A stretch of DNA of 64,000 bases. It comes from Minisyncoccia bacterium. Its GTDB lineage: Bacteria > Patescibacteriota > Minisyncoccia > Phycocordibacterales > CAJBRS01. The notes under the pieces were generated by a model. That model was not told the origin of the DNA. It ran no database searches and was given only the letters and a program-made list of their open reading frames with translations. Below, piece after piece: positions 1-31,068 of the stretch (position 1 is the first letter of the stretch; the number at the start of each line of letters is the position of its first letter). The stretch covers positions 54,042-118,041 of the forward strand of contig JBBQRF010000001.1 of the NCBI GenBank assembly GCA_038215155.1, read 5' to 3'. The translations under genes and the position numbers were made by a program.

Positions 1-309
1 CTTTGCTCGAGTATCCACTTTGTGAGGCGTGATTTTTATCAGTCTTCTTTTAGTTAAGTCACTAGTCATGTTAGTAACGTAAGGAGCTTCCACGCCTAAG
101 ATATCTGCCGCATCACTAGGTTTAATCCCCTCCTCAAACTCACACAAGAGTCCTAAGAGGGCCCAACGTACTGGACCGATTTCTAGCTCGTTAAGATAAA
201 GTGTAGTGTTTTGGTGAAGGATTCGATAAGCTTTCGTCTGAAGTAGCCCTACTTTGTAGGTAGTATTGTTCTTTGCTAGCAGTTTCATTTTTTTCATCAT
301 ATCTTTCAT
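1..309 (-). CDS. MarR-family transcriptional regulator, partial (C-terminus lies beyond the left edge)
   Basis: Absent from the ORF track because it runs off the window. My reverse translation from the ATG at 309 (in-frame alternatives at 300/297/288) gives MKDMMKKMKLLAKNNTTYKVGLLQTKAYRILHQNTTLYLNELEIGPVRWALLGLLCEFEEGIKPSDAADILGVEAPYVTNMTSDLTKRRLIKITPHKVDTRAK. This is a winged-helix MarR pattern with the typical D-x-R-x-K wing. Confidence 0.7.
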   Translation of the reverse strand, partial: MKDMMKKMKLLAKNNTTYKVGLLQTKAYRILHQNTTLYLNELEIGPVRWALLGLLCEFEEGIKPSDAADILGVEAPYVTNMTSDLTKRRLIKITPHKVDTRAK

Positions 310-1567: not shown

Positions 1568-2702
1568 TGAAGGTTAAGGCCTTACCTTTCTTGTTTCCTC
1601 GCCCTGTGCGGCCGATTCGGTGAATATAATCGTCGTTAGTAGCCGGTAAATCAAAATTGATGACGTGGGAAATATTATCTATATCCAAGCCTCGGGCAGC
1701 TACATCCGTCGCCACCAGCACCTGTATATGGTTTTCTTTGAAAAGTTTTAAAGCTCTCTGTCGCTGACTATGATTCTTATTACCGTGGATAGAATCAGAT
1801 TTGAAGCCTCTTTTGCCTAGTATCTGAGAGAGATTTTCCACTCCCCTTTTTGTGCGTCCAAAGATTAGCACTTTTGTAAGCTCTTTTTGGTTTAGTAAAT
1901 CGTGTAGAAGTTCGGTCTTGTTTTGACTTCGGCCGACTCTAATAACGTCCTGCTCCACATTTTTAGCGGTATCTTGGCTTTTGACAGAAATTCGCACTGC
2001 TTCATGCAAGAACTCGTGAATTAATTTATCAATCTCCGGTGAAAGAGTGGCGGAAAAAAATAAAGTCTGTCGCTTCTTTGGCATGGCGCCCATGATAATT
2101 CTCATATCATTGATAAAGCCCATGTCGAGCATTCGATCTGCTTCATCTAAGACAATGGTATTGAAATTAGCTGGACGAATGAGGTGGCGGTTAATCAAGT
2201 CTTTTAATCGTCCCGGCGTACCAATAATAAAATTATTCTTGTATTTTAATTCTCTAATCTGTGGGCCAATAGGCGCTCCTCCCACGCAACAAACAGAAAA
2301 GATTTTCATGCCAGAGGCAAAATCTTTTAGTTCGCTCTGAATCTGAATAGCTAGTTCTCTAGTTGGCACAATAATCATTATTTCCTCCGCCCTATTTAAG
2401 AGAACTTTATTAATTAGAGGAATGATAAAAGCGGCTGTTTTACCAGTGCCTGTGTTGGCGATACCTACCAGGTCTGACCCTTCGAGGATACGACCAATAG
2501 CCCGATCCTGGATGGGAGTCGGCATCGTATACTTTTTATTGACGATAGATTTTTTCAGGATTTGCTCAATCTTGAAATCTTCAAATCGATGTTCAGGTTT
2601 GAAATGCTCCGCTTCTTCCGTAATAACGGCTTTATTGATGAATTTTGCAAAATTGATCTTTTCAGTCTTTCCCTTGAACTTCCGTGGATATTTCTTATAC
2701 AT
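1560..2702 (-). CDS. DEAD-box ATP-dependent RNA helicase
   Basis: Q-motif region (TPIQ), Walker A ANTGTGKTAAF, PTRELA, DEAD (VLDEADRMLDMGF), SAT, HRIGRTGR. Confidence 0.95.
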   Translation of the reverse strand: MYKKYPRKFKGKTEKINFAKFINKAVITEEAEHFKPEHRFEDFKIEQILKKSIVNKKYTMPTPIQDRAIGRILEGSDLVGIANTGTGKTAAFIIPLINKVLLNRAEEIMIIVPTRELAIQIQSELKDFASGMKIFSVCCVGGAPIGPQIRELKYKNNFIIGTPGRLKDLINRHLIRPANFNTIVLDEADRMLDMGFINDMRIIMGAMPKKRQTLFFSATLSPEIDKLIHEFLHEAVRISVKSQDTAKNVEQDVIRVGRSQNKTELLHDLLNQKELTKVLIFGRTKRGVENLSQILGKRGFKSDSIHGNKNHSQRQRALKLFKENHIQVLVATDVAARGLDIDNISHVINFDLPATNDDYIHRIGRTGRGNKKGKALTFID

Positions 2703-2759
2703 TTTTCGATAACTCTCACTCGAAAGTTTAGAAAAACTAAGGAGAATCGTTATAGCCCT

Positions 2760-2788
2760 ATATTACTAGAGAAACCGGAATACGTCAA
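2760..2788 (-). promoter_or_regulatory. sigma70-like promoter for the helicase/csp unit
   Basis: On the minus strand: TTGACG (2783-2788), 17 nt, TAATAT (2760-2765). It sits directly after the upstream terminator and about 57 nt before the helicase ATG. Confidence 0.5.
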
Positions 2789-2790
2789 GG

Positions 2791-2825
2791 AAAACGCCGC
2801 ACGCCCATGGGCGCGCGGCGTTTTC
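2791..2825 (-). terminator. hairpin terminator after the 2849-3556 gene
   Basis: aaaacgccgcacgccca pairs with tgggcgcgcggcgtttt (17-bp stem, one mismatch). A and T tracts on both sides make it potentially bidirectional. Confidence 0.65.
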
Positions 2826-2848
2826 ACTAAAACTTAGTTTCGATCTGG

Positions 2849-3556
2849 TTATCTTCGAAAGATTTTGAAAAACCAGCCGAAGAGACTAACTCCACTTGCA
2901 TGAGCGTCGATGAAAGCTTGTAAGGATGCTTGCTCTCTAACCAATACTTGAATTTGAGTGTTCAATTCTGCCTTTATAGCAACGTCAGTAGAAGAAGCAG
3001 CTAAAGCTCTTAATTGATTGATGGTTACTGTGGTGTTGGCTACCGCTGCTCTAAGGAGACTTAAACTAGTTTCATCTGTTCCAAAAAAGAAAACATGAAG
3101 TCGGCCTTGTCCTTCAAGATGGGACATTGCCGCAACAGTGCTTGAGCTTGAATGATCTTGATCTTCAGCAATGACACGAACCTTGGCTCCTATTCCTTTA
3201 TCGTGATCAGCAATATTAAGGAGATGCTGAACGAAACTAGCAACAACGCTTCGGTGCATGTCAGCACTTTCCTCACCCTGTGTTTCTACATCATTATCAT
3301 TCTTATCTTCGTTTCGTACCGTGGTAGTACTAGAATTATGTCCCGACACTTCGTCGCGTTCTCCACGATCTTTATGGCGAGAGTTTAAGTCACCATCAGC
3401 ATCTATTTCTTCAGAGGTATTTGCAGAATCTTCACCATTAGTAATCTTTAGTTGTGAATTCACGGAGGTTCGGAAATTTGTTTCCGCAAAAGCAAAACTG
3501 GAACTTATCAAACTAAGCATAAGGGCTAGGGATAAGAAAAGACTTGTTTTTTTCAT
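2849..3556 (-). CDS. secreted hypothetical protein
   Basis: N-terminal signal peptide MKKTSLFLSLALMLSLISSSFAFA, an acidic low-complexity middle and a helical C-terminus. No recognisable family. Confidence 0.6.
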   Translation of the reverse strand: MKKTSLFLSLALMLSLISSSFAFAETNFRTSVNSQLKITNGEDSANTSEEIDADGDLNSRHKDRGERDEVSGHNSSTTTVRNEDKNDNDVETQGEESADMHRSVVASFVQHLLNIADHDKGIGAKVRVIAEDQDHSSSSTVAAMSHLEGQGRLHVFFFGTDETSLSLLRAAVANTTVTINQLRALAASSTDVAIKAELNTQIQVLVREQASLQAFIDAHASGVSLFGWFFKIFRR

Positions 3557-19611: not shown

Positions 19612-21429
19612 TTAATCTTCTGCCTCTTCCTCCTCAATTGCTTTATCCTCCGAATCGGTAACGATAAAACCACCGGCCTGTAAATTCCATAGCTTCTGAT
19701 AAAGTCCGCCATCATTTTGGAGTAATGTCTGATGAGTCCCTTCTTCTACAATTTTGCCATTTTCTACTACTACGATTCTATCCATCTTTTGGATAGTGGA
19801 GAGTCTGTGAGCGATGACAATAACTGTTTTTCCTATCATTAATTTATCCAATGCATCTTGAATTAATTGTTCTGAATGTGAATCAAGACTTGATGTGGCT
19901 TCATCGAGTACCAAGATCGGTGCATTCTTAAGAATAGCGCGAGCAATGGCCACCCGTTGACGTTCTCCTCCTGAAAGTTTAATTCCTCGCTCCCCTACGT
20001 AAGTTTCATATTTTTTCGGCAAGCTCTCAATGAACTCATCGCAATGAGCGAGGCGAGCCGCCGCAATAACCTCGTCATCGGAGGCATCCCGACGGCCATA
20101 CCTAATATTTTCCATTAGAGTTCGATGAAAAAGGATTGGATCTTGCGGTACTAAACTAATATTTTTATGCAGACTTTGCTGAGTGACGGTCTGAATATTT
20201 TGCTCATCCACAATAATTTCTCCTTCTTTAACATTATAAAGACGGAGCAACAGTCGAACAAAGGTAGATTTCCCTGCACCGGACGGGCCGATCAAGGCCA
20301 CTTTTTCGCCGCTCACAATCTTTAGATTAACCTCATCCAACACCTTTCTGTTCTCATTAAAACTGAAAGATAAATTTTTAAATTCTACTTCCCCTTTAGT
20401 AACAGTTAGCTCCTTTGCCTGCGGCGCATCCTGAATTTCTTGGGGTAATTCTAAAATTTCCACCATTTCCTTAGCATCAGCAAAGGCTTGATAGAAATCC
20501 TTTACAACGCTACTAAAGCTCCATAATCGATAACCTAGCCCTAGGACGTAGGTCTCAAATAAAACAAATGTTCCCAAGCTAATCTGACCGTTGGCCCATA
20601 GCCGAATGGAAAAATAAAAAATAAAAAACTCCATGAAAACAATAAACAGCATTTGAATTGCGTTCATCGTGTCATCTAAAGTGGCGACAAATAGACCAAT
20701 CTTCTGCTGATCATTGGTAACGCTTTTAAATCGATCATCTTCAAAACGCTCGCCGGTGAAAAGCTGGATTGTGTTGTGGTTAGTGATATTGTCGGAGAGC
20801 ACTGCCGATGATCGAGTATCTGCCTCCGCTTTTTGCAGATCATATTTTAATTTAAATCGAGCAAAGAAGTAATTAAAATTTAAAAATAAAATCATCCAAA
20901 TAATAATGACCCATCCAATAGTGTGGTTAATACTGAAGACAATTATAATAGTTCCGACAATACGAATACTGATTGGCAAGAGATTGAAAGTAATTCGATC
21001 CACTAGCCGCTCAAAGGCTCGAGCGTACCTACCAATTTTTTGCGTTAACGAACCGGTGAAATTATTGGCAAAAAAAGTGTATGAATGACGAATTAAATAC
21101 TCAAAGGCATTTTGTCGAAGAAGAGTTGATCCTTTAGTTTGGAAGCGGTCTATGGAAAATTGACCGTATTGCGAAAAGAGCCAATCCAATAAATTCAACA
21201 ATAGAATTATGAGAATGATCTTAGAAAGAAGAGGTACGGCGGCTAATCTGTCCGGAGAGCCATCAAGAATATTAAAGAAGTTTCTGTATTGGAGTGGAAT
21301 GAATAAGGCAATGATGGTTGGTAGAATGCCTCCTAAAATCGTTGAGACAAACCAAAAAGGCAAGCTCTTCACTACCTGCCAATACGAGCCTATCACCTGC
21401 TTTATTCCTATTTTGGGGTATTTAGTCAT
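19612..21429 (-). CDS. ABC exporter, fused permease/ATPase (MsbA-like type I)
   Basis: Six-TM N-terminal domain, Walker A GPSGAGKST, signature LSGGERQR, Walker B LVLDEATS. Confidence 0.9.
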   Translation of the reverse strand: MTKYPKIGIKQVIGSYWQVVKSLPFWFVSTILGGILPTIIALFIPLQYRNFFNILDGSPDRLAAVPLLSKIILIILLLNLLDWLFSQYGQFSIDRFQTKGSTLLRQNAFEYLIRHSYTFFANNFTGSLTQKIGRYARAFERLVDRITFNLLPISIRIVGTIIIVFSINHTIGWVIIIWMILFLNFNYFFARFKLKYDLQKAEADTRSSAVLSDNITNHNTIQLFTGERFEDDRFKSVTNDQQKIGLFVATLDDTMNAIQMLFIVFMEFFIFYFSIRLWANGQISLGTFVLFETYVLGLGYRLWSFSSVVKDFYQAFADAKEMVEILELPQEIQDAPQAKELTVTKGEVEFKNLSFSFNENRKVLDEVNLKIVSGEKVALIGPSGAGKSTFVRLLLRLYNVKEGEIIVDEQNIQTVTQQSLHKNISLVPQDPILFHRTLMENIRYGRRDASDDEVIAAARLAHCDEFIESLPKKYETYVGERGIKLSGGERQRVAIARAILKNAPILVLDEATSSLDSHSEQLIQDALDKLMIGKTVIVIAHRLSTIQKMDRIVVVENGKIVEEGTHQTLLQNDGGLYQKLWNLQAGGFIVTDSEDKAIEEEEAED

Positions 21430-22899: not shown

Positions 22900-23856
22900 T
22901 TAATATAATTTTACACCGACCCTGTCGCGAACGAGTTCCATCTTGGCTTTCGCTCGTTCGCGAGCTTTTTCTCCACCCGCTCTTAATATTTCTAATACTT
23001 CTTCTTTGCGACTCTCCCAATTTTGCCGCTTTTCTCTTAGTGGACTAACGAAAACAATAATATCATTAGCCAGAGCTTCCTTAAGAATCTGGTACTTTCC
23101 TTTATTTTGCGAGTAAAGGGCGTCGAGCTCGGCATTTGGTTTAAATAAATTATGAATGGCTCGAACATTCACGGGCACATCAGTGCCTGAGTCAGTAACA
23201 ATACTCATTACAGATTTTCGGACTTCCTCGTCAGAGGCAAAAAGTGGAATGGTATTATTGTAACTCTTGCTCATTTTCTCTCCATCAATTCCTGGCACCG
23301 TTTGCACCGCCGCTAAAATGAGCGGCTCAGGAAGCTTAAAAGTCTGGCCAAATATTCGATTAAATTTCTCTGCTGTGTCTCGCGCATATTCAACGTGCTG
23401 TTTTTGATCGCTTCCCACTGGCACAATATCTGGATCATAAATTAAGATATCGGTGGCCATGAGCATTGGGTAGTTAAAAGTGCCAACACTTACTTCCTTG
23501 TCCTTAGCGATGGCATCCTTGTATGCGTGGGCGCGCTGAAGGTACGGCATGGTAGTAATAGTGTCAAAAATCCAAGTGAGCTCAGTGTGCTCCGAGATAT
23601 CAGATTGCTTAAAGAGAGTGACTTTGGTGGGATCGAGCCCAATAGCTAAATAATCCAGCATTATTCCAAGGATATTTTCTCGCATTTCTTCGGCATTTTG
23701 AATGAAGTTTAAAGCGTGATAATCAGCAATCATGACAAAACACTCATACTGATCCTGCATTTCCACAAATTGGCGCATGGCCCCGAAGTAATTACCAATA
23801 TGAGGGCGGCCGGTCGGTTTTACACCGGAGAGCATAATTTTCTTTTCAGCAGACAT
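22900..23856 (-). CDS. trpS: tryptophan--tRNA ligase
   Basis: SGVKPTGRPHIGNYFGA (HIGH-type) and KMSKS. About 318 aa, typical of TrpRS. Confidence 0.9.
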   Translation of the reverse strand: MSAEKKIMLSGVKPTGRPHIGNYFGAMRQFVEMQDQYECFVMIADYHALNFIQNAEEMRENILGIMLDYLAIGLDPTKVTLFKQSDISEHTELTWIFDTITTMPYLQRAHAYKDAIAKDKEVSVGTFNYPMLMATDILIYDPDIVPVGSDQKQHVEYARDTAEKFNRIFGQTFKLPEPLILAAVQTVPGIDGEKMSKSYNNTIPLFASDEEVRKSVMSIVTDSGTDVPVNVRAIHNLFKPNAELDALYSQNKGKYQILKEALANDIIVFVSPLREKRQNWESRKEEVLEILRAGGEKARERAKAKMELVRDRVGVKLY

Positions 23857-23983: not shown

Positions 23984-24559
23984 ATGGCATTATTTTTTAT
24001 TATCCCAGGATATGGCGAAAGTCCCAATGGCAAGGCGTATCGAAAAATTGCCTTGGCTGCTAAAAAGAAAGGTCATATCCCTGTGCCAATTGAAGTAGAT
24101 TGGAGAAAAAACAAATCAATGTCTTTGTATGTTAAAGAGACTAAGCAAAAAATTCGAACATCCTTAAAAAATCAAAAAGACAAAGATATTCAAATTCTCG
24201 GGTTTTCTTTTGGGGCCTATATAGCGGCTCTATTGACTCGTAAGTATTACTTTCAAAAAATATATTTTTGTTCGATGTCACCCTACTTTAAGGATGACTT
24301 TTCTGCAATTCCAACCGAGTGGAAAAAAAAATTAGGTAAAAAAATGCTACAAAGTCTGCAAAAATACAAATTTCCAACAACTTCAAAATGCTCCGCGGTA
24401 TTTCTGGTGGGCAAAAAAGAACCTCCTATTTCAATCAATCGATTTCACAAATCTTACAGACAATGGAGAGGAAGAAAGAAAAAATTTATTATCGAAAAGT
24501 CTGATCATGATATTGGCAATGCTGCATATTTAAAAAAAGTTTTGGAGGTAATAAATTAA
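23984..24559 (+). CDS. small alpha/beta-hydrolase-like protein
   Basis: GFSFGA nucleophile elbow (GxSxG) and C-terminal SDHD. 191 aa. Confidence 0.5.
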   Translation: MALFFIIPGYGESPNGKAYRKIALAAKKKGHIPVPIEVDWRKNKSMSLYVKETKQKIRTSLKNQKDKDIQILGFSFGAYIAALLTRKYYFQKIYFCSMSPYFKDDFSAIPTEWKKKLGKKMLQSLQKYKFPTTSKCSAVFLVGKKEPPISINRFHKSYRQWRGRKKKFIIEKSDHDIGNAAYLKKVLEVIN

Positions 24560-24582
24560 AAAAGCACCTAAACATTAGATGC

Positions 24583-25533
24583 TCACTCTTTTACTTTATC
24601 TTGCAATAGAGATAGATGAAATTTGGTGATTTCATCACCTCGCTTCTGGTTAAAAAATCCATACCAGTCGCCGCAAGGATTGAAGTCAATCAAAATCAGC
24701 TGTCCTTCTTTGGTTAGCAGAAATTCAGGACTAGCAAAAGATAGGTTTAGCTTTTTAAGCAAGATTTTGCATGCATCCTTCACACTGGTCGCAAGCTGAA
24801 AATTCTTCCAATTAAGTCTGTCGAACTTCTTTGTGGAGGCATTTCTTTTTTGTATTTTACTTAATACGCTCGCGCAGACTGCCCAACACTTATCTTCGGT
24901 AATGTGAGTCCTGACGTGATAAGAAGTATCAATCAGTTCCTGCCACTGCCACAGCAACCCATCCTCAACTATTTTCGGATTCAGGATACATTCACGTGTA
25001 ATCGTGACTTCCTTCGAGTAGCTTCTCTTATTGGAAATCATGAAAGAATGTCCCAGACTTTTTTTACACAGAATTGTAGGGGACAATCGAGTTGGAGGTA
25101 ACATTCCATTAATGCAAAATGAGGGGACCAGTAATCCACTTTTCTGAGCTTGATCCAGTAGGAATATCTTCGAATCTCCATTGGAAATGCGTTGGGGTGT
25201 TCCTGGAAACCATTGGTTCGGGAACAACCTACCTAATTCCTCTAGAAATTGACCCAGAACATACCTATAAACTTGAGGAAACGAGTATTTGGAATTAAGC
25301 ATTAAAGCGCTATCGGCTCGAATTGGAGCTGATGCGTAAAAAATCGGTCGATTTATAGGTCGCAGCTGATAATAGCAGACTGTCTTTTTATCGACATATC
25401 CAAAGGATAATTCACCTCGGATCGAGTGAATATCTATAATATGGATTGGCAAACCAAAATGTGGAGCTAATCTTTGAAGAGCGACCAAGTGTGGATCCAC
25501 CGAACTAACCCGACTCGATATGACAAAGATCAT
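24583..25533 (-). CDS. ATP-grasp protein resembling RiPP (graspetide, MdnC/MvdD-type) maturases
   Basis: Three features resemble MdnC as I remember it: the N-terminal MIFVISS...D start, a central K..LLDQAQKSGLLVP segment, and C-terminal LNLSFASPEFLLTKEGQLILIDFNPCGDWYGF (compare MdnC LNYGAIDMIVTPDERYIFLEINPVGEFFWLE). An HMM search is needed to confirm. Confidence 0.55.
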   Translation of the reverse strand: MIFVISSRVSSVDPHLVALQRLAPHFGLPIHIIDIHSIRGELSFGYVDKKTVCYYQLRPINRPIFYASAPIRADSALMLNSKYSFPQVYRYVLGQFLEELGRLFPNQWFPGTPQRISNGDSKIFLLDQAQKSGLLVPSFCINGMLPPTRLSPTILCKKSLGHSFMISNKRSYSKEVTITRECILNPKIVEDGLLWQWQELIDTSYHVRTHITEDKCWAVCASVLSKIQKRNASTKKFDRLNWKNFQLATSVKDACKILLKKLNLSFASPEFLLTKEGQLILIDFNPCGDWYGFFNQKRGDEITKFHLSLLQDKVKE

Positions 25534-25553
25534 AAATTTCCTTCCTAAGGAGG

Positions 25554-25589
25554 TAAAAAAAGAAGCGTAGAGACTAGCCCTACGCTTCT
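25554..25589 (-). terminator. hairpin plus T8 between the 39-aa ORF and the ATP-grasp gene
   Basis: On the minus strand: agaagcgtag, 9-nt loop, ctacgcttct, then TTTTTTTT. It ends 20 nt before the ATP-grasp ATG, so ATP-grasp expression needs read-through. Confidence 0.7.
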
Positions 25590-25594
25590 CTAAT

Positions 25595-25714
25595 TTAGCC
25601 GCAAAAATGCTTGGTGGGGCGTCGAACTTTCTTGCTCATCTCTTGGATGAGTTGCTCCTTCGAGCCTTCCAACACTCCTAACTTCCGCATTTTTCTGCAC
25701 ATGAGCTTTTTCAT
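25595..25714 (-). CDS. unannotated 39-aa ORF (candidate precursor peptide)
   Basis: My translation: MKKLMCRKMRKLGVLEGSKEQLIQEMSKKVRRPTKHFCG. GGAGGT lies 3-4 nt before the ATG. It sits between the kinase stop and the ATP-grasp gene and is followed by a terminator hairpin. Confidence 0.45.
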   Translation of the reverse strand: MKKLMCRKMRKLGVLEGSKEQLIQEMSKKVRRPTKHFCG

Positions 25715-25810
25715 GATACCTCCGTGTTTTTTATTTTAAGAACAGCTCAGCACACGCTGGATGCTCTAAAAGTAGATTACTTAATGGATTATTTTTGTCA
25801 ATGGAAGTCC

Positions 25811-27409
25811 TTATGCTGCTGGCAGTTCTACCCAAAATGTAGATCCTTTCCCGGTTCCTTCTGATTCTGCCCAAATGCGGCCTTTGTGAGCTTCCACAAT
25901 TTCCTTGGCGATGAAGAGGCCGTAGCCGGTGCTGTTGACGTTGACCTTGGTGGATTCTTTGCCACGACCACCTTCAGTAAAGAGCCGTTTCTTATCTTCT
26001 TCGGTAATGCCCACACCCGTGTCTTTTATACTAAAAAATATTTTCCCATCTTTTTTAGCCAATGAGATTTTCAAGCCACCCTTCAGGGTGTATTTAATAG
26101 AGTTATCAATCAGATTCCCCACGACATGTTGACTGAGTTGATCTCGATCGCCAATGGTGGTGAAATCGACATCTCCCGGAATAATAGTCTCCAATGTCAG
26201 ATTTTTATTTCGAGCCTCCTTTGTGTGTCCCTCAATCTGATCAACGACTACTTTTCGGAAATCAAAAGACTCTCGTTTATATGTAACTGTTCCCTTCTTT
26301 AAGTTAGCGGCGCTTAAGATACTCATTACTGTCTCTACTCCCTCCTGATTATCTCTAAGCCCTTCTTTGGCGACAGATTTAATAGAATCAGGAGTCTCAC
26401 CAAAATCCCCTTCAAGTATTCCAGCAAAAGCAGCCTTACTCTTGGTCAAGTATCCCTTGATTTGATGGCTGACGAAATGAATCAGACCTTCCTGGCGGTC
26501 ATTGGCAAGTTGTAATTCACTGGCCAAATGTTCAATCTTCTCGCGCTGCTCTACCTCGCGCAAAACTCCTCGAATGAGATTGATTCCAAAAATTAAAACT
26601 AAAATAAAAATACTGCTTCGAAATATAATTAATGAAGCAGTATTGGCAAAGATTATTTCGATAAAACTTACGAGAGCTAAGAAAAAAGTAATTATTGCAG
26701 TGCTAACCACTTTTACATTAAATAAATGATGTCGAGCTATGGCATAGGCGGTAAAAAGAACAAATGGAAAAACGAAAAGGGCGCTCAGGGGTATGAACCT
26801 TGTGTTGTTTAATAGCGTAGGAAAAATTAAATTAAAAACAATTATCAAAGTAAACATGATGCTCACGCCCGAAAGCAAAAGAGTAAATTGTTTTCTTTCG
26901 ATTCCGCCTGCTATACCTCTTTTTTTTACCATTAAGAAAATCCCGTTTCCTACTAAAGACACTGCTAATATTACAAACAACAAAATACCGGGTGCTGCTA
27001 TGGGTTGCGACACAGTGCCTAATGGTGCCGCTTTAATACCAGAATAGACAAAAGGAGTCAACGTTAACAAAGCAGTGCCCAAAACAGCGAGCTTTAAATG
27101 TCTTCTATATTTAGAGGTAAATGTAAACGTGGTGTTAGGAAAGACAGACATAAGCTTATAAAAAAAATATGCCTGAAAAATAGCAAAAAATAACACTAAT
27201 TTAATCAGAAACAAGACTAATGAAATATTGGCAACTTGGTAGTTTAAATAACTTACGACTCCCCATAACATAGTGCTAACAGAAAAACCCAAAAAGTATT
27301 TATTTGTGATGCTTTTTGGGTTACTAAAATAAATTACCGAGCCCAAAATTCCCGTACTTGCAACGACAAAACCAACAGACAAAAGATCAAAATTATGGAA
27401 CGAAGACAT
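25811..27409 (-). CDS. sensor histidine kinase with a polytopic N-terminal domain
   Basis: About 8 TM helices, then a coiled coil, an H-box (FVSHQIKGYL) and HATPase_c N/G boxes (NLIDNSIKYT, DTGVGI, GYGLFIAKEIV). Confidence 0.85.
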   Translation of the reverse strand: MSSFHNFDLLSVGFVVASTGILGSVIYFSNPKSITNKYFLGFSVSTMLWGVVSYLNYQVANISLVLFLIKLVLFFAIFQAYFFYKLMSVFPNTTFTFTSKYRRHLKLAVLGTALLTLTPFVYSGIKAAPLGTVSQPIAAPGILLFVILAVSLVGNGIFLMVKKRGIAGGIERKQFTLLLSGVSIMFTLIIVFNLIFPTLLNNTRFIPLSALFVFPFVLFTAYAIARHHLFNVKVVSTAIITFFLALVSFIEIIFANTASLIIFRSSIFILVLIFGINLIRGVLREVEQREKIEHLASELQLANDRQEGLIHFVSHQIKGYLTKSKAAFAGILEGDFGETPDSIKSVAKEGLRDNQEGVETVMSILSAANLKKGTVTYKRESFDFRKVVVDQIEGHTKEARNKNLTLETIIPGDVDFTTIGDRDQLSQHVVGNLIDNSIKYTLKGGLKISLAKKDGKIFFSIKDTGVGITEEDKKRLFTEGGRGKESTKVNVNSTGYGLFIAKEIVEAHKGRIWAESEGTGKGSTFWVELPAA

Positions 27410-27424
27410 TTGTGTAAAATTATA

Positions 27425-28453
27425 TCAGTTTTTTAAAACGTCTGAAACCGAAAGACGCGGACTATGTGGTTGCGAAGTGATTGCGCGGCCTACTCGAAAT
27501 ATAAATTGACTATGAAAACCGGGCTTTATAAAAAAATTTAATTTTTCTCGATAATTCGGAGACAAGATGGGTGCTGCCCATACTGCCGTTTTTAAATTGA
27601 ATTGTTCTGCAATTAAGGCGATTCTTTCATAGCATTCCCCCACCTTTATCCAATCAACTTTTGTATCCGTCATGGAACTTAACAAAATATAAGCTGGAGT
27701 ACCGTCAGTGAGTATTTTTAAAGTCGAAGACTTATTAAGGCGATCCATATTAAAAAATTTTACTAAATTAGGAACAATAAAAGATGGTAATAGAGGTATA
27801 CCCATCCCAAATGCAGGGATACCAATTTTGGATTTTGTTATATTATTTTTCACATATGGACTGAGTTCTCGTCGAAATTTTGAATTGTCCATTAATTCTA
27901 TATTTGAACTAACTATTATATCCGCAATTCCCTCTTTATCTGTATGGCCGTCAACAACGTTTATATTCATCTTAGGATTATCCAACTGAGAAAGTGCTTC
28001 TCTAAATTCTATAGAAAGTGGCTCCCTATGATAATTACTACGATTTACAGATCTTTTTACAATTGAAAAAATCAAGTGAGAAGAATTTTTTCGTATTGCG
28101 GTTTCGTCGAAACGAATGATGGCGACTAGATTTTCATGTATTGCATCAGGAAGATAAGAGACGTCGTATGATAGGCCGTAGTAATCTGCGGCTACACGTA
28201 TGTTTTCGATAGCACACCCCAAATTCATCAATAATAATCTATTATCAGGGTCACCCACCTTTAATTTTCGGAGAGAATTTTGGTAAATAAAAATACTTTG
28301 GTCGCGTATTTCAAAAATCCATGGCTGACTGTTATGACTCGAGGGCGCTAGAACTGCAAAATTAATTAGGAAATGTAATTTTTCTTTCCACGTGCGGCAC
28401 TCTTCGTATTTAGCAAAGTCAATGTCCCAAGGTTTATAATTTTCCTTTTCCAT
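27425..28453 (-). CDS. Acg-type nitroreductase-fold (FMN) protein
   Basis: Start trimmed to MEKENYKPW (28453), 4 nt after the upstream stop. APSSHNSQPWIFEI motif. About 340 aa, the two-lobed nitroreductase size typical of the Acg family. Confidence 0.8.
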   Translation of the reverse strand: MEKENYKPWDIDFAKYEECRTWKEKLHFLINFAVLAPSSHNSQPWIFEIRDQSIFIYQNSLRKLKVGDPDNRLLLMNLGCAIENIRVAADYYGLSYDVSYLPDAIHENLVAIIRFDETAIRKNSSHLIFSIVKRSVNRSNYHREPLSIEFREALSQLDNPKMNINVVDGHTDKEGIADIIVSSNIELMDNSKFRRELSPYVKNNITKSKIGIPAFGMGIPLLPSFIVPNLVKFFNMDRLNKSSTLKILTDGTPAYILLSSMTDTKVDWIKVGECYERIALIAEQFNLKTAVWAAPILSPNYREKLNFFIKPGFHSQFIFRVGRAITSQPHSPRLSVSDVLKN

Positions 28454-28457
28454 ATAA

Positions 28458-30023
28458 TTATTTTTTAACCCACCGTTGTTTGCCTTGTGAATTAAAATAT
28501 TTTGAATGTTGGTAAGGCCACCCAATAATTAACGGAATTACTTTTGAGGGTTCGGTTGAATAAAGATAAGCATATTCTGAATTGTGAGTTCGCAAACCCA
28601 GTATTATAGATTCGGTAATTTGTTTTTTTAATTTGGGATTCCAGCGTATTCCTTTTTTAAGTTCAACGTGTATTTCCAGTATTCTATCCATTTTTTTGTT
28701 CTCACGTTTCATCATGGTAGCCTTTCCTGTTAGATAGCGATTTAAAGGATAGCTGTCGATAATAGACCTAATTTCCTCCGGATAAATGTTTGCACCTCTA
28801 AAAACCATACCTAAGTCTGACCGTGCATAGACATAAACAAAGGGCAACTTTAATATTTGATCAAATATTTTATATTTTAAAATTTCCTTCTCGATACTAA
28901 TTCCACTTTTTTTTAACTTTCTCATCATTTCGTCATAAGTAATCACACCCCCAAGATCTGCAAACTCGTAACGAATAAGCGGAATAGAAGAGCCATAATT
29001 AGTGGCTACTACTTTTTTTCCAACCTCCTCAAAAAAAATACTTTGCGGGTAATATTGACCTATTGTCGGAATATTGGTGGCATGTGGAAAGATGGATAAA
29101 AAAACTTTCGGATTTTCATTGGCAATTTTTCGGATTAAGTTAGACAAGGATGTTTCATGCGCAATCGTTCCTTGTTCAACGGTACCGTAAATATTGATAA
29201 TATCGTTTAAAGGGTTTTTTAACCCAGATTTTTTGACAATATAATTGCGGAATTCCTCGGAATACCCTTCCGCAGCAGTTAAAATACGTAAATTATGTTT
29301 AGACCAATGAATGCCTGCCTCCTTTCCACTATCTAAAATATCTTTTATGAAAGGTGGGTAGCCCATCAAGATAACTTGATCATAAAAAGGAGCGAACTTT
29401 TTAAACGACTGAAGATATAACTCTTTGTTTGTGCCGACCGGTACAAGTGTAAAATCATAACCTTTCTGGGCAATTTTGTTGAAATTCTTGTAGGTAAAGA
29501 TGCCGCCAATCCAAATACCAAGTCCAAAGCCCACTATGCCTAGGGTGCGCTTCTTATCTAATTCAAATTGATTGATTAAAAAAATCTCCGATGCGTGCTC
29601 ATATTGACGATCGTGGTCCTCATCGCGCGGAAAGAAAAAAGGCTCACCAGTAGATCCTGAAGTGGCTGAGATTGTCGTTGCCACGGAGACATCTCGATTT
29701 GGAAAAAGGTCAAGATAATCGTGGCTACGGAGATAAGCGTCCTTTGAAAGAAGCGGTAGTTTATGAAAATCCTTGATAGTGGAAATCCGTCCCTTGAATC
29801 CTTGTTTTCTAATAAATTGGCGATAGGCGGGAACGGTTTCGTAAACATACTTAAATAAATTTATAGCCATATTTTCCCCCTGCCTCTTCCAATATGCTGC
29901 GGGCCGTCTTTTGTAATATGCCAAAGATTTCTCAATCTTGGGAGGAACGAAGTGGGCAAATTTATTTTTCTTTTTGGGGCTAGGCATAGGAATTAAAAAT
30001 CTTTTCGGCCATGATATTGGCAA
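28458..30023 (-). CDS. PaaK / coenzyme-F390-synthetase-like adenylate-forming enzyme
   Basis: P-loop-like SATSGSTGEPFFFPR and the overall length and layout of the phenylacetate-CoA ligase family. The start is uncertain: 30023, 29987 (8-nt overlap with the upstream stop) or 29870. Confidence 0.75.
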   Translation of the reverse strand: MPISWPKRFLIPMPSPKKKNKFAHFVPPKIEKSLAYYKRRPAAYWKRQGENMAINLFKYVYETVPAYRQFIRKQGFKGRISTIKDFHKLPLLSKDAYLRSHDYLDLFPNRDVSVATTISATSGSTGEPFFFPRDEDHDRQYEHASEIFLINQFELDKKRTLGIVGFGLGIWIGGIFTYKNFNKIAQKGYDFTLVPVGTNKELYLQSFKKFAPFYDQVILMGYPPFIKDILDSGKEAGIHWSKHNLRILTAAEGYSEEFRNYIVKKSGLKNPLNDIINIYGTVEQGTIAHETSLSNLIRKIANENPKVFLSIFPHATNIPTIGQYYPQSIFFEEVGKKVVATNYGSSIPLIRYEFADLGGVITYDEMMRKLKKSGISIEKEILKYKIFDQILKLPFVYVYARSDLGMVFRGANIYPEEIRSIIDSYPLNRYLTGKATMMKRENKKMDRILEIHVELKKGIRWNPKLKKQITESIILGLRTHNSEYAYLYSTEPSKVIPLIIGWPYQHSKYFNSQGKQRWVKK

Positions 30024-31068
30024 TAATATTAGGCGCGGTATTTTCTTTTTTGCTTTTTCTTAAAATATTTTGAAGGGTGTTAGGGATTTCCAACACTTGT
30101 TTTAGTACTTTATTTTCACGATATGTCTTATTCTTAAATTCATCGAAAACAGCAATGAGGCCGCCGGCATTAATGACGTAGTCGGGCGCGTATAGAATAT
30201 CCAATTTGTGGAGCAGTACTCCGATATTTTCATTGGCTAATTGGTTGTTGGCACTACCGGCTATGATTTTAGCTCTAATTTCGGTAATAGTCATTGAGCT
30301 AAGGGAGCCGCTCAGGGCACACGGAGAGAAGACGTCGACATTTTGTTTATGAATTTCTTCCGGCTTTACTATAATCACTTTTGGAAATTTGCGGCGGCAA
30401 AGAGCAATGGCTTTTGGATCGATGTCAGCTCCATAAATTTTCCCCGCTTCAATTCCAGATTTCTTCATTTCTTTCTCAATCAAGGTAAGAAGGGCGTTTC
30501 CAACCTTACCTAACCCTTGGATAGCGAAACTCCTTCCTTCAAAAGAGGTATTGCCATAAATCTCTTTTAAGCAAACTTTTATTGATTCGAAAATGCCGAC
30601 TGCTGTTAAAAAGGTGGCATTGTCATTGAAACCGACTATTTGATTTTTAGCAGCCTTCATTGAATTGAGGTCGCGTCTAAAGACGCCGGCATCCGTCCCG
30701 GTGACGAAGTGAGTAGAGAGAAAGGCTACTTTTTCGGCGTAACTTCTGAAGAGCTCCTTTCGCTTTTTTTCATCTCTATTCCCCACCTTATCAATGATCA
30801 CTCCCTTGGCGCCGCCACAATCAAGTCCTGCCATGGCGGATTTATATGACATAAGGCGAGATAAGCGAAGAGCATCCTGAAGTGCCTCGTTCAGTGAGCC
30901 GTATTGCCACAAACGTGTAGCGCCGAAAGATGGAATGGAAGGATTAGAACGATGAATAACAATAAATCCTTCTAGTCCGGAAGCTTCATCCTGAAGGTAG
31001 GCCACGAAACGATGATCATCAAACTCTGAAAAATCCTTTATGCTTTTTTCAGCTAAAAAGTCGGGCAT
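29980..31068 (-). CDS. Glu/Leu/Phe/Val dehydrogenase-family protein (Leu/Phe-DH-like)
   Basis: Catalytic-lysine region MSYKSAMAGLDCGGAKGVI and the NAD Rossmann motif IQGLGKVGNAL. About 360 aa, as in LeuDH/PheDH. Confidence 0.8.
   Translation of the reverse strand: MPDFLAEKSIKDFSEFDDHRFVAYLQDEASGLEGFIVIHRSNPSIPSFGATRLWQYGSLNEALQDALRLSRLMSYKSAMAGLDCGGAKGVIIDKVGNRDEKKRKELFRSYAEKVAFLSTHFVTGTDAGVFRRDLNSMKAAKNQIVGFNDNATFLTAVGIFESIKVCLKEIYGNTSFEGRSFAIQGLGKVGNALLTLIEKEMKKSGIEAGKIYGADIDPKAIALCRRKFPKVIIVKPEEIHKQNVDVFSPCALSGSLSSMTITEIRAKIIAGSANNQLANENIGVLLHKLDILYAPDYVINAGGLIAVFDEFKNKTYRENKVLKQVLEIPNTLQNILRKSKKENTAPNIIANIMAEKIFNSYA

Follow-up and report, generated by a model that had tools for sequence, protein, structure and literature searches.

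A gap of 277 nucleotides on the minus strand of a Minisyncoccia genome, lying between the stop codon of a histidine kinase gene (25811) and the start codon of an ATP-grasp ligase gene (25533), raises the question of whether it harbors a gene that annotation has passed over and, if so, what the adjacent ligase does with the product of that gene. The locus lies in a 64,000-nucleotide stretch of contig JBBQRF010000001.1 (assembly GCA_038215155.1), the whole of which is referred to here as the window. A sequence-only reading of this DNA had picked out in the gap a 39-codon open reading frame (ORF) with a Shine-Dalgarno element, followed by a terminator-like hairpin. It had proposed that the peptide and the ATP-grasp protein form a precursor and maturase pair of the graspetide kind, with ester or amide links between side chains. 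The small ORF, its Shine-Dalgarno sequence, the hairpin and the ATP-grasp gene are all present in the DNA at the positions that it gave. Comparison with relatives answers the first part of the question with near certainty. For the second it leads to a tentative answer, in which a side-chain hydroxyl of the peptide would be joined to its own C-terminus.

The ATP-grasp protein has about 30 relatives, sharing 22-42% identity, all of which come from bacteria of the candidate phyla radiation (CPR, or Patescibacteria). We compared the contigs of these relatives, 38 metagenomic loci and nine loci from GTDB genomes, the last obtained by scanning that genome collection with a profile (a single-sequence scan of the same collection returned none); individual loci are denoted below by numbers prefixed with L. 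Every true family locus with sufficient upstream sequence encodes a single small ORF, on the strand of the ATP-grasp gene and 50-90 nucleotides before it, and nearly all of these ORFs are preceded by a GGAGG-type Shine-Dalgarno sequence. The orthologous peptides, about 30 of which are distinct, are 24-46 residues long and fall into two related core types. The first is typified by ...R-(P/K/I/V)-T-x-H-(F/H)-C-G (HxCG) and includes the window peptide, which ends in RRPTKHFCG; the second is typified by ...(D/G)-(P/R/K)-T-(R/Y)-Y-(I/L)-G-G (YxGG). Counting from the C-terminus, 26 of 26 distinct DNA sequences encode a Thr at position -6 (ACC 8, ACT 7, ACG 9 and ACA 2) and a Gly at position -1 (GGC 8, GGG 9, GGA 5 and GGT 4), and the stop codon follows that Gly directly (TAA 10, TGA 10 and TAG 6). 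In the same set position -4 is His or Tyr and position -2 is Cys or Gly, while position -7 is Pro in 19 and Lys, Arg or Ile in the other seven. As all four synonymous codons are used at both Thr(-6) and Gly(-1), selection has acted on the protein rather than on the RNA. Chance occurrence of the ORF is excluded by this codon usage together with the conservation across loci, and the peptide is, on these grounds, almost certainly a real gene under selection. The pairing that had been read from a single locus is thereby found again in about 30 distinct loci.

The C-terminal signature of these peptides is also highly specific. A six-frame scan for [ST]x[HYFW]x[CGA]G followed by a stop codon yields a single match in the entire 64-kb window, and the same scan of 46 related loci returns matches essentially only at the equivalent position, with two off-target instances. 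The peptides have nonetheless escaped notice: no gene caller has predicted them, a collection of 15 billion proteins contains no exact copy of any of the seven for which this was checked, and ten of them compared with Pfam and NCBIfam match no model at E <= 10, which excludes a known precursor family. Likewise, literature searches with the motif strings gave irrelevant matches only, and the strings are absent from those supplements of two large graspetide surveys that are accessible.

Two peptides depart from both core types in a manner that helps in understanding what is being conserved. The peptide of L017 ends in ...GRTMGFVD and that of L011 and L052 in ...GGCSNGIAV; the former retains a Thr and the latter has a Ser at position -6, such that the distance from the hydroxyl-bearing residue to the C-terminus is identical in all peptides, including these two with unrelated cores. 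L017 additionally carries a second small ORF (47-97, plus strand; product MPCRKGRFRKHHFNCG), which has a Shine-Dalgarno sequence, lies 344 nucleotides upstream of the gene for the ATP-grasp and ends in ...NCG; with the main L017 peptide being atypical in its core, this ORF could be a second or a relic precursor. Most of the peptides have, upstream of the core, a motif with the pattern hydrophobic-(S/T)-hydrophobic-x-(D/E)-hydrophobic (e.g. EISLEEL, SIKDL, ISLRDI and TIDVL). This motif resembles the LFIEDL segment of PsnA2, which is needed for leader binding by the graspetide ligase PsnB (PsnB study).

Acidic residues show the opposite pattern of conservation. In graspetides the side chain of a Ser, Thr or Lys is linked to that of an Asp or Glu, and the sequence-only reading had counted such residues in the window peptide. 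Its tally of three Glu, two Ser, one Thr and Cys at positions 6 and 38 stands, with eight Lys rather than the nine that it gave; the three Glu are E16, E20 and E25, and there are also four Arg. These three Glu are, however, lineage-specific, and no Asp or Glu position is conserved among the peptides. The last ten residues are free of both in 17 of the 19 HxCG peptides, and five peptides (L001, L002, L003, L035 and L036) contain neither at all, that of the L001 type being MKKQPLPQLSKQTRGGKPPRPTRHFCG. At the loci with these Asp/Glu-free peptides the enzymes retain every catalytic residue. The existence of such orthologs implies that the standard side-chain chemistry cannot be the conserved reaction, and on this point the earlier proposal of side-chain esters or amides fails. 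Given that no acidic side chain is universal, the C-terminal carboxylate is the only universal carboxylate of the peptides. The warning that the peptide would have to represent a new class was right, and more so than the reading of one locus could have known; the Glu, Ser and Lys residues on which that reading dwelt are not conserved.

The ATP-grasp protein belongs to a discrete family. A search of 5.8 billion proteins found five relatives, and at E <= 1e-30 the family comprises, among 1.84 billion representatives, about 47 clusters (at 50% identity), beyond which there is a sharp drop in score to generic graspetide-type ATP-grasps (roughly 90 bits). A Pfam search recovers no family for it. 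Its only NCBIfam matches are to TIGR04187, MvdC (TIGR04185), grasp-with-spasm (TIGR04192) and MvdD (TIGR04184), and a search of all PDB sequences with a profile built from the family retrieves AMdnB, MdnB, CdnC and MdnC alone. When its AlphaFold2 (AF2) model is compared with known structures using Foldseek, the top 32 matches are all graspetide macrocyclases (AMdnB, MdnC, PruB, CdnC and PsnB; E about 1e-16), followed by RimK and ArgX (E about 1e-10), which are weaker by about six orders of magnitude. By all three routes the enzyme sorts with graspetide maturases and not with the ligases of primary metabolism. The likeness of its segment LILIDFNPCGDWYGF to microviridin ligases, pointed out in the sequence-only reading, is borne out by the profile alignment, where it is paired with YVFLEINPTGEW of AMdnB and YYFIEINAAGEFFW of CdnC.

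Across 22 members of the family the invariant positions are R72, D74, R90, K122, K158, E175, Q196-W-Q198, R208, R230, E270, D283, N285 and a PxGDW motif. In the profile alignment R208 corresponds to the Arg of the ELR motif, R230 to the DWR loop, D283 and N285 to the ExN motif, and R72 to the WYRR Arg of CdnC; R230 sits in a D-L/F-R loop in the family, for which the window protein has Q-K-R. The residues conserved throughout the graspetide ligases include the carboxylate-escorting Arg213, Arg72 and the D(F/W)R loop (PsnB study), and we infer the match to the PsnB numbering by way of MdnB and CdnC. The ATP-grasp protein is, then, an active-looking and deeply divergent member of the branch of ATP-grasp enzymes to which the peptide macrocyclases belong. 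A neighbor-joining tree of 30 enzymes, constructed without bootstrap values, places the YxGG type and both odd cores in one subtree, with the HxCG type being widespread, and thus gives loose support to the idea that the core type follows the enzyme tree and that the two have co-evolved.

The records that contain family members carry the names Parcubacteria, Campbellbacteria, Nomurabacteria, Paceibacterota and Vogelbacteria; members also occur in two Saccharibacteria-labeled metagenome-assembled genomes (MAGs), and many of the metagenomic matches come from 0.1-micrometer groundwater fractions. The family thus appears to be restricted to CPR/Patescibacteria. A search of viral contigs found no relatives, which excludes a phage origin, and an anti-phage defense system was discarded as PADLOC returned nothing for the ligase, the hydrolase encoded downstream of it or the peptide. 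We also left out four loci (L044-L046 and L058) that were considered as distant members and contain a different, canonical ATP-grasp beside a truncated family remnant. In L044 the remnant (2189-2344, minus strand; ...FIDLNPCGDWYGFVSKEESRIVAEMIVEML) is convergent with a hydrolase gene, as it is in L045, L046 and L058. Beside it, at 2392-3348 on the plus strand, lies a gene for a canonical graspetide-type ATP-grasp with HDWRRD and EINPNGQW motifs, in a contig with runs of N; the arrangement could represent a replacement event or an assembly chimera.

The DNA around the small ORF has a conserved organization of its own. Of 31 loci, 17 have a perfect TTGACA and five more a TTGACT upstream of the peptide ORF, and the associated -10 boxes are TAnTnT-like. 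A GC-rich stem of 9-14 base pairs, usually with a T-rich tail behind it, lies between the stop codon of the peptide gene and the start of the ATP-grasp gene in at least 22 of 28 loci. The stem differs in sequence from locus to locus, with conservation of its structure and position, and begins 3-13 nucleotides after the stop codon in about 16 of the 28 loci and 15-32 nucleotides after it in the remainder. The stem in the window (25591..25559) starts 3 nucleotides past the peptide stop and has a perfect 10-base-pair core (AGAAGCGTAG/CTACGCTTCT). If G-T pairs are counted, a hairpin scan extends it to as many as 14 pairs, six of them G-C, with a loop of five; an Rfam search of the gap region gave no match at E <= 1. 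The 10-base-pair stem and T-run of the sequence-only reading are thus there, with the run being T7 rather than T8: it reaches 25555, and the ATP-grasp start codon is 21 rather than 20 nucleotides further on, a distance that includes the Shine-Dalgarno sequence AGGAAGGA. That reading had also held that there is no room for a separate ATP-grasp promoter. Indeed, the sole promoter-like match (25557..25529, 9 of 12 positions) overlaps the T-run and the start codon and is unusable for the gene. Its corollary, that the ligase depends on read-through, agrees with the retention of the hairpin in position and structure across loci. In operons for RiPPs (ribosomally synthesized, post-translationally modified peptides), the order promoter, peptide, hairpin and ligase yields precursor in excess of enzyme, and by analogy we infer that the hairpin sets the precursor:enzyme ratio here.

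These observations can be combined in a model of a two-gene RiPP-type operon. A sigma-70-like promoter would drive a strongly translated precursor-peptide gene, the product of which would consist of a variable leader and a fixed core, T-x-(H/Y)-x-(C/G)-G, ending exactly at the stop codon. The hairpin and T-run beyond the stop would end most transcripts, with read-through providing smaller amounts of the ligase. The ligase would hold the leader and phosphorylate a carboxylate of the core at the expense of ATP, and a hydroxyl would attack the resulting acyl-phosphate. In this scheme the C-terminal Gly would supply the carboxylate (its alpha-carboxylate) and Thr(-6) the attacking hydroxyl, giving a six-residue (19-membered) C-terminal lariat lactone with a loss of 18 Da. 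Two loosely attached steps might follow, with the hydrolase possibly opening or processing the ester and the kinase with its seven-transmembrane (7TM) sensor region possibly sensing the product; both links are weak.

The elements of this model differ in their standing. That the peptide is the substrate of the ligase is probable. Activation of the C-terminal carboxylate is somewhat favored. As the Thr or Ser always stands six residues from the free C-terminus, even in unrelated cores, the -6 hydroxyl and the alpha-carboxylate provide the simplest reading of the pattern. For the specific product, a lactone between Thr(-6) and the C-terminus, we offer this as a tentative proposal, with slightly less than even chances of being correct. 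Rings of comparable kind are well precedented, for example in the fusaricidin-type hexadepsipeptides and in the lactone of the gelatinase biosynthesis-activating pheromone (GBAP). The literature searched contains no report of a six-residue lactone between a Ser or Thr and the C-terminus being made by an ATP-grasp.

Several observations weigh against the lactone model. Every characterized graspetide ligase uses side-chain carboxylates, and use of an alpha-carboxylate would be unprecedented in the clade. The scores of the enzyme against the NCBIfam models are 42 bits for TIGR04187, 38 for MvdC, 21 for MvdD and 30 for grasp-with-spasm, against cut-offs of 350, 425, 475 and 230, respectively, and its AF2 model is of moderate quality (predicted local distance difference test score, pLDDT, 72; predicted template modeling score, pTM, 0.75). 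The leader motif is degenerate in the window peptide (EQLIQEM) and is lacking in those of L001-L003; the hairpins of several loci have poor T-tails; and the neighbor scans found no dedicated leader protease or exporter that is conserved in the locus. Finally, a conserved C-terminal octapeptide abutting a stop codon beside a terminator would also fit a regulatory arrest peptide.

This last point leads to the alternative that the small ORF is a cis-acting, TnaC-like leader on which the ribosome stalls at the stop codon and modulates the terminator, with the substrate of the ligase being encoded elsewhere. The concentration of conservation in the last eight residues and the stop codon would be expected of such an element, as would the terminator that follows in most loci, with its 5' arm no more than 13 nucleotides from the stop in about half of them and 3 nucleotides in the window, and there is no conserved protease or exporter in the locus. 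Yet the spacing between stop and hairpin ranges over 3-32 nucleotides, and in roughly half of the loci a terminating ribosome would probably not mask the stem. Moreover, the two members with wholly different C-termini still keep the -6 hydroxyl, a motif like that of graspetide leaders precedes the core, and the enzymes of this clade need a peptide substrate, for which this is the only conserved small ORF nearby; we therefore regard an arrest peptide as distinctly improbable. A canonical graspetide, with Thr, Ser or Lys side chains linked to E16, E20 and E25 of the window peptide, would take advantage of the residues counted above and of the acidic N-terminal halves of the YxGG-type relatives. 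Still, none of these Glu is conserved, acidic residues are missing from the part of the peptide that is conserved, and five peptides devoid of Asp and Glu are accompanied by enzymes with every catalytic residue, making this the least credible of the alternatives and extremely unlikely.

The C-terminal carboxylate might, on the other hand, be activated for a different purpose, namely to couple an external amine or amino acid to the terminal Gly in the manner of RimK, LysX/ArgX or the scaffold-peptide pathways, with the peptide being a carrier or scaffold from which the hydrolase releases the product. Such a role draws on the same sole universal carboxylate. RimK and ArgX, which form the second structural tier, act on the C-terminal residue of small proteins, and there are scaffold-peptide pathways that build on a C-terminal carboxylate. 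It is nevertheless rather unlikely: the graspetide macrocyclases outscore RimK and ArgX in fold comparisons and are the only ligases matched in sequence, the neighborhood has no conserved genes for making a second substrate, and the placement of a hydroxyl at exactly -6, even in unrelated cores, is left unexplained. Also compatible with a fixed six-residue unit is a head-to-tail cycle, cyclo(T-x-H/Y-x-C/G-G), in which the leader would be cut before the Thr, often after a Pro, and the alpha-amine of the Thr joined to the C-terminus. The frequency of Pro at -7 (19 of 26) and the M16 peptidase genes near several loci would suit it. However, prior proteolysis would strip the very leader that graspetide-type enzymes bind, position -7 is Lys, Arg or Ile in seven of the 26 peptides, and the Ser in place of Thr in L011/L052, with the rest of the core unrelated, would have no explanation. 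The M16 genes are also found beside stand-alone hydrolases and look syntenic. We consider such a cycle very improbable and retain the Thr(-6) lactone as the working proposal. The features of the window locus on which this proposal draws, and those of the flanking genes, are collected in Table 1.

Table 1. Positions of the features at the peptide/ATP-grasp locus of the window
Feature	Positions	Strand	Remarks
Promoter-like element (putative)	25774..25801	-	-35 TTGACA at 25801..25796; 16-nt spacer; -10 TAATCT at 25779..25774
Shine-Dalgarno GGAGGT of the peptide ORF	25718..25723	-	3 nt to the ATG at 25714
Gene for the 39-aa precursor-like peptide (stop included)	25595..25714	-	Unannotated; product MKKLMCRKMRKLGVLEGSKEQLIQEMSKKVRRPTKHFCG
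Degenerate leader motif KEQLIQEM (putative)	25637..25660	-	Residues 19-26; probable counterpart of the motif in relatives
C-terminal core RRPTKHFCG	25598..25624	-	Residues 31-39; Thr34 is -6 and Gly39 the C-terminal residue
Intrinsic-terminator-like hairpin and T-run (presumed attenuator)	25555..25591	-	Between the peptide and ATP-grasp genes
Shine-Dalgarno AGGAAGGA of the ATP-grasp gene	25539..25546	-	
316-aa ATP-grasp ligase	24583..25533	-	Divergent relative of the graspetide macrocyclases
Terminator-like hairpin in the ATP-grasp/hydrolase gap	24562..24584	.	
191-aa minimal alpha/beta hydrolase	23984..24559	+	Convergent with the ATP-grasp gene; GFSFGA nucleophile elbow, Ser75, His175
532-aa histidine kinase	25811..27409	-	7TM sensor region at the N-terminus; same strand, directly upstream

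Among the neighboring genes, the one most consistently associated with the pair encodes a hydrolase of about 190 residues, which lies immediately downstream of the ligase in convergent orientation in 30 of the 33 non-redundant loci as well as in every GTDB locus (L052-L057 among them). In the window a gap of 23 nucleotides alone parts the two genes, and the hairpin in it could act for both strands. An alignment of the hydrolases shows an invariant GFSxGA motif along with Ser75 and His175. The closest folds to the AF2 model (pLDDT 95.6) are feruloyl esterases, carboxylesterases, monoglyceride lipase, type II thioesterases and dienelactone hydrolase. With its fold neighbors being esterases and thioesterases rather than peptidases, a role as the leader peptidase is not favored. 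An esterase-like protein encoded next to a predicted ester-forming ligase is, however, suggestive of a possible partner, which might act as an esterase or lactonase. Stand-alone homologs with 39-45% identity also occur without the ligase or the peptide (L047, 6001-6588; L048 and L049, 6001-6573), and second, shorter paralogs of 168-172 residues lie a few kilobases downstream in L006 (4333-4839, plus strand) and L030 (4659-5177, plus strand).

Full-length homologs of the histidine kinase are encoded directly upstream and on the same strand in L020 (862-2523), L022 (1063-2724) and L055 (5001-7109), and kinases are found within a few kilobases in L029, L035, L038, L053, L054, L056 and L057. The kinases of the window and L022 share 35% identity over 524 residues, and the ligases of the four kinase-adjoining loci (the window, L020, L022 and L055) are only about 30-35% identical to each other. 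Pfam scans, which covered part of the neighbors, detected no response regulator and no AgrB-like protein among those examined. Genes for M16 (insulinase-type) peptidases are situated 1-4 kb from the hydrolase in L023 (1205-2488), L030 (804-2249), L053 (3371-4663) and L047 (6615-7883), and their products could be leader peptidases or simply syntenic. As the stand-alone hydrolase locus L047 has both an M16 peptidase and a kinase gene nearby and lacks the ligase, part of this neighborhood is ancestral synteny. The idea that the hydrolase, kinase and M16 peptidase are obligate partners of the pair is weakened by such hydrolases, which lack ligase and peptide yet have a kinase and M16 peptidase nearby; the kinase may be a functional neighbor or may reflect synteny. 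Aminoacyl-tRNA synthetase genes also recur near these loci. In the window (22900-23856, minus strand) and in the Vogelbacteria MAG locus L057 (1759-2772, minus strand), a tryptophanyl-tRNA synthetase (TrpRS) gene adjoins the hydrolase gene, and in the window the start of an aspartyl-tRNA synthetase gene (22899) abuts the TrpRS stop (22900). The adjacency of TrpRS and hydrolase is evidence of an old housekeeping synteny.

Other genes in the vicinity were considered with respect to transport and tailoring. The ATP-binding cassette (ABC) proteins encoded upstream in L018 and L026 are two-domain ABC-F proteins with no membrane domain and are probably housekeeping in function. In the window, 3 kb downstream on the ligase strand (19612-21429, minus), there is a gene for a 605-residue MsbA/HlyB-type ABC exporter, scoring about 400 bits against MsbA-related models and below their cut-offs; a similar exporter is encoded downstream in L006 (4875-6662), and most loci of the peptide/ligase pair have no such gene in common. 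The window also has, at 27425-31068 (minus strand), three genes that overlap or abut one another; they are unusual for CPR and are likewise not conserved with the pair. They encode an Acg-family flavin mononucleotide (FMN)-binding oxidoreductase (197.1 bits against a cut-off of 199), a PaaK-like adenylating ligase (a weak match) and a ScyB-like amino-acid dehydrogenase (256 against 600).

Lactones between a side chain and the C-terminus are normally products of non-ribosomal peptide synthetase thioesterases or AgrB-type proteases. If the proposal is correct, graspetide ligases, which are now defined by side-chain-to-side-chain links, would extend to this type of product, and the pair would offer a compact two-gene tool for C-terminal peptide cyclization. 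For the CPR/Patescibacteria, uncultured episymbionts in which hardly any secondary metabolism or signaling is known, a conserved modified peptide, perhaps connected with a membrane kinase, would provide a handle on the interaction with hosts or with each other. Unannotated peptide genes of the kind found here are also the cause that an earlier survey of CPR ATP-grasps had suspected for missing precursors.

That survey (Makarova et al. 2022; PMC8939145) described two branches of CPR ATP-grasps with RiPP-like loci. In branch 1 the cores have the form TxxxTx(6-10)Dx(1-4)D; in branch 2 precursors were not found in most loci, missed small ORFs were suspected and a possible alpha/beta hydrolase was mentioned (PMC8939145). 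A "cluster 23" protein is encoded at every locus of the two branches, in many cases together with SPASM or UbiE enzymes (PMC8939145). The window family is like these branches in comprising ATP-grasp RiPP-like loci of CPR genomes and unlike them in that no "cluster 23", SPASM or UbiE protein was seen at its loci. RimK and LysX/ArgX are comparable as ATP-grasps that activate the carboxylate of the C-terminal residue of a ribosomally made partner, and they form the second structural tier after the graspetide ligases. However, they add external amino acids without cyclization and have partners that end in Glu, whereas the window-family peptides end in Gly. They are also less similar to the window enzyme than the graspetide ligases and give no sequence-profile match.

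The graspetides themselves, such as microviridin (MdnA/MdnB/MdnC), plesiocin (PsnA/PsnB) and chryseoviridin (CdnA/CdnC), offer the closest likeness. In both cases the precursor gene lies directly upstream of that for the ATP-grasp, and graspetide ligases are the best match of the window enzyme in sequence and fold. The two share an Arg equivalent to Arg213 of PsnB, the D-x-R loop and the Mg-binding D/E-x-N, along with an LFIEDL-kind leader motif and, in the window family, an invariant Thr donor. In contrast, the window family has no conserved Asp/Glu acceptor, its core is pinned to the C-terminus, and its enzyme reaches about 10% of the curated cut-offs and belongs to a discrete CPR clade of about 47 clusters. 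As gauged from sequence, the window system is graspetide-like and stops short of the class, failing on the acidic side-chain acceptor and on the curated thresholds.

In the architecture of its predicted product, the window family recalls cyclic lactone and thiolactone pheromones. GBAP of Enterococcus is made by FsrB and the staphylococcal autoinducing peptides (AIPs) by AgrB, in each case as a lariat in which a Ser, Thr or Cys side chain is joined to the C-terminal alpha-carboxyl, and both are perceived through histidine kinases that cross the membrane several times. At window-family loci, too, a 7TM histidine kinase often lies nearby, an association that may be due to synteny. It is conceivable, as a speculation to which we give little weight, that the lariat lactone is an AIP/GBAP-like pheromone sensed by the 7TM kinase and quenched by the esterase. 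This would constitute a convergent quorum- or host-sensing circuit in CPR and the first case of a graspetide-type ligase acting on a backbone alpha-carboxylate. The means of ring closure would nevertheless set the two apart: no AgrB/FsrB-type membrane protease was found among the neighbors scanned at the window-family loci, and whereas GBAP and the AIPs are closed by transacylation with removal of a C-terminal tail, closure in the window family would be ATP-driven, by way of an acyl-phosphate on the C-terminus as encoded.

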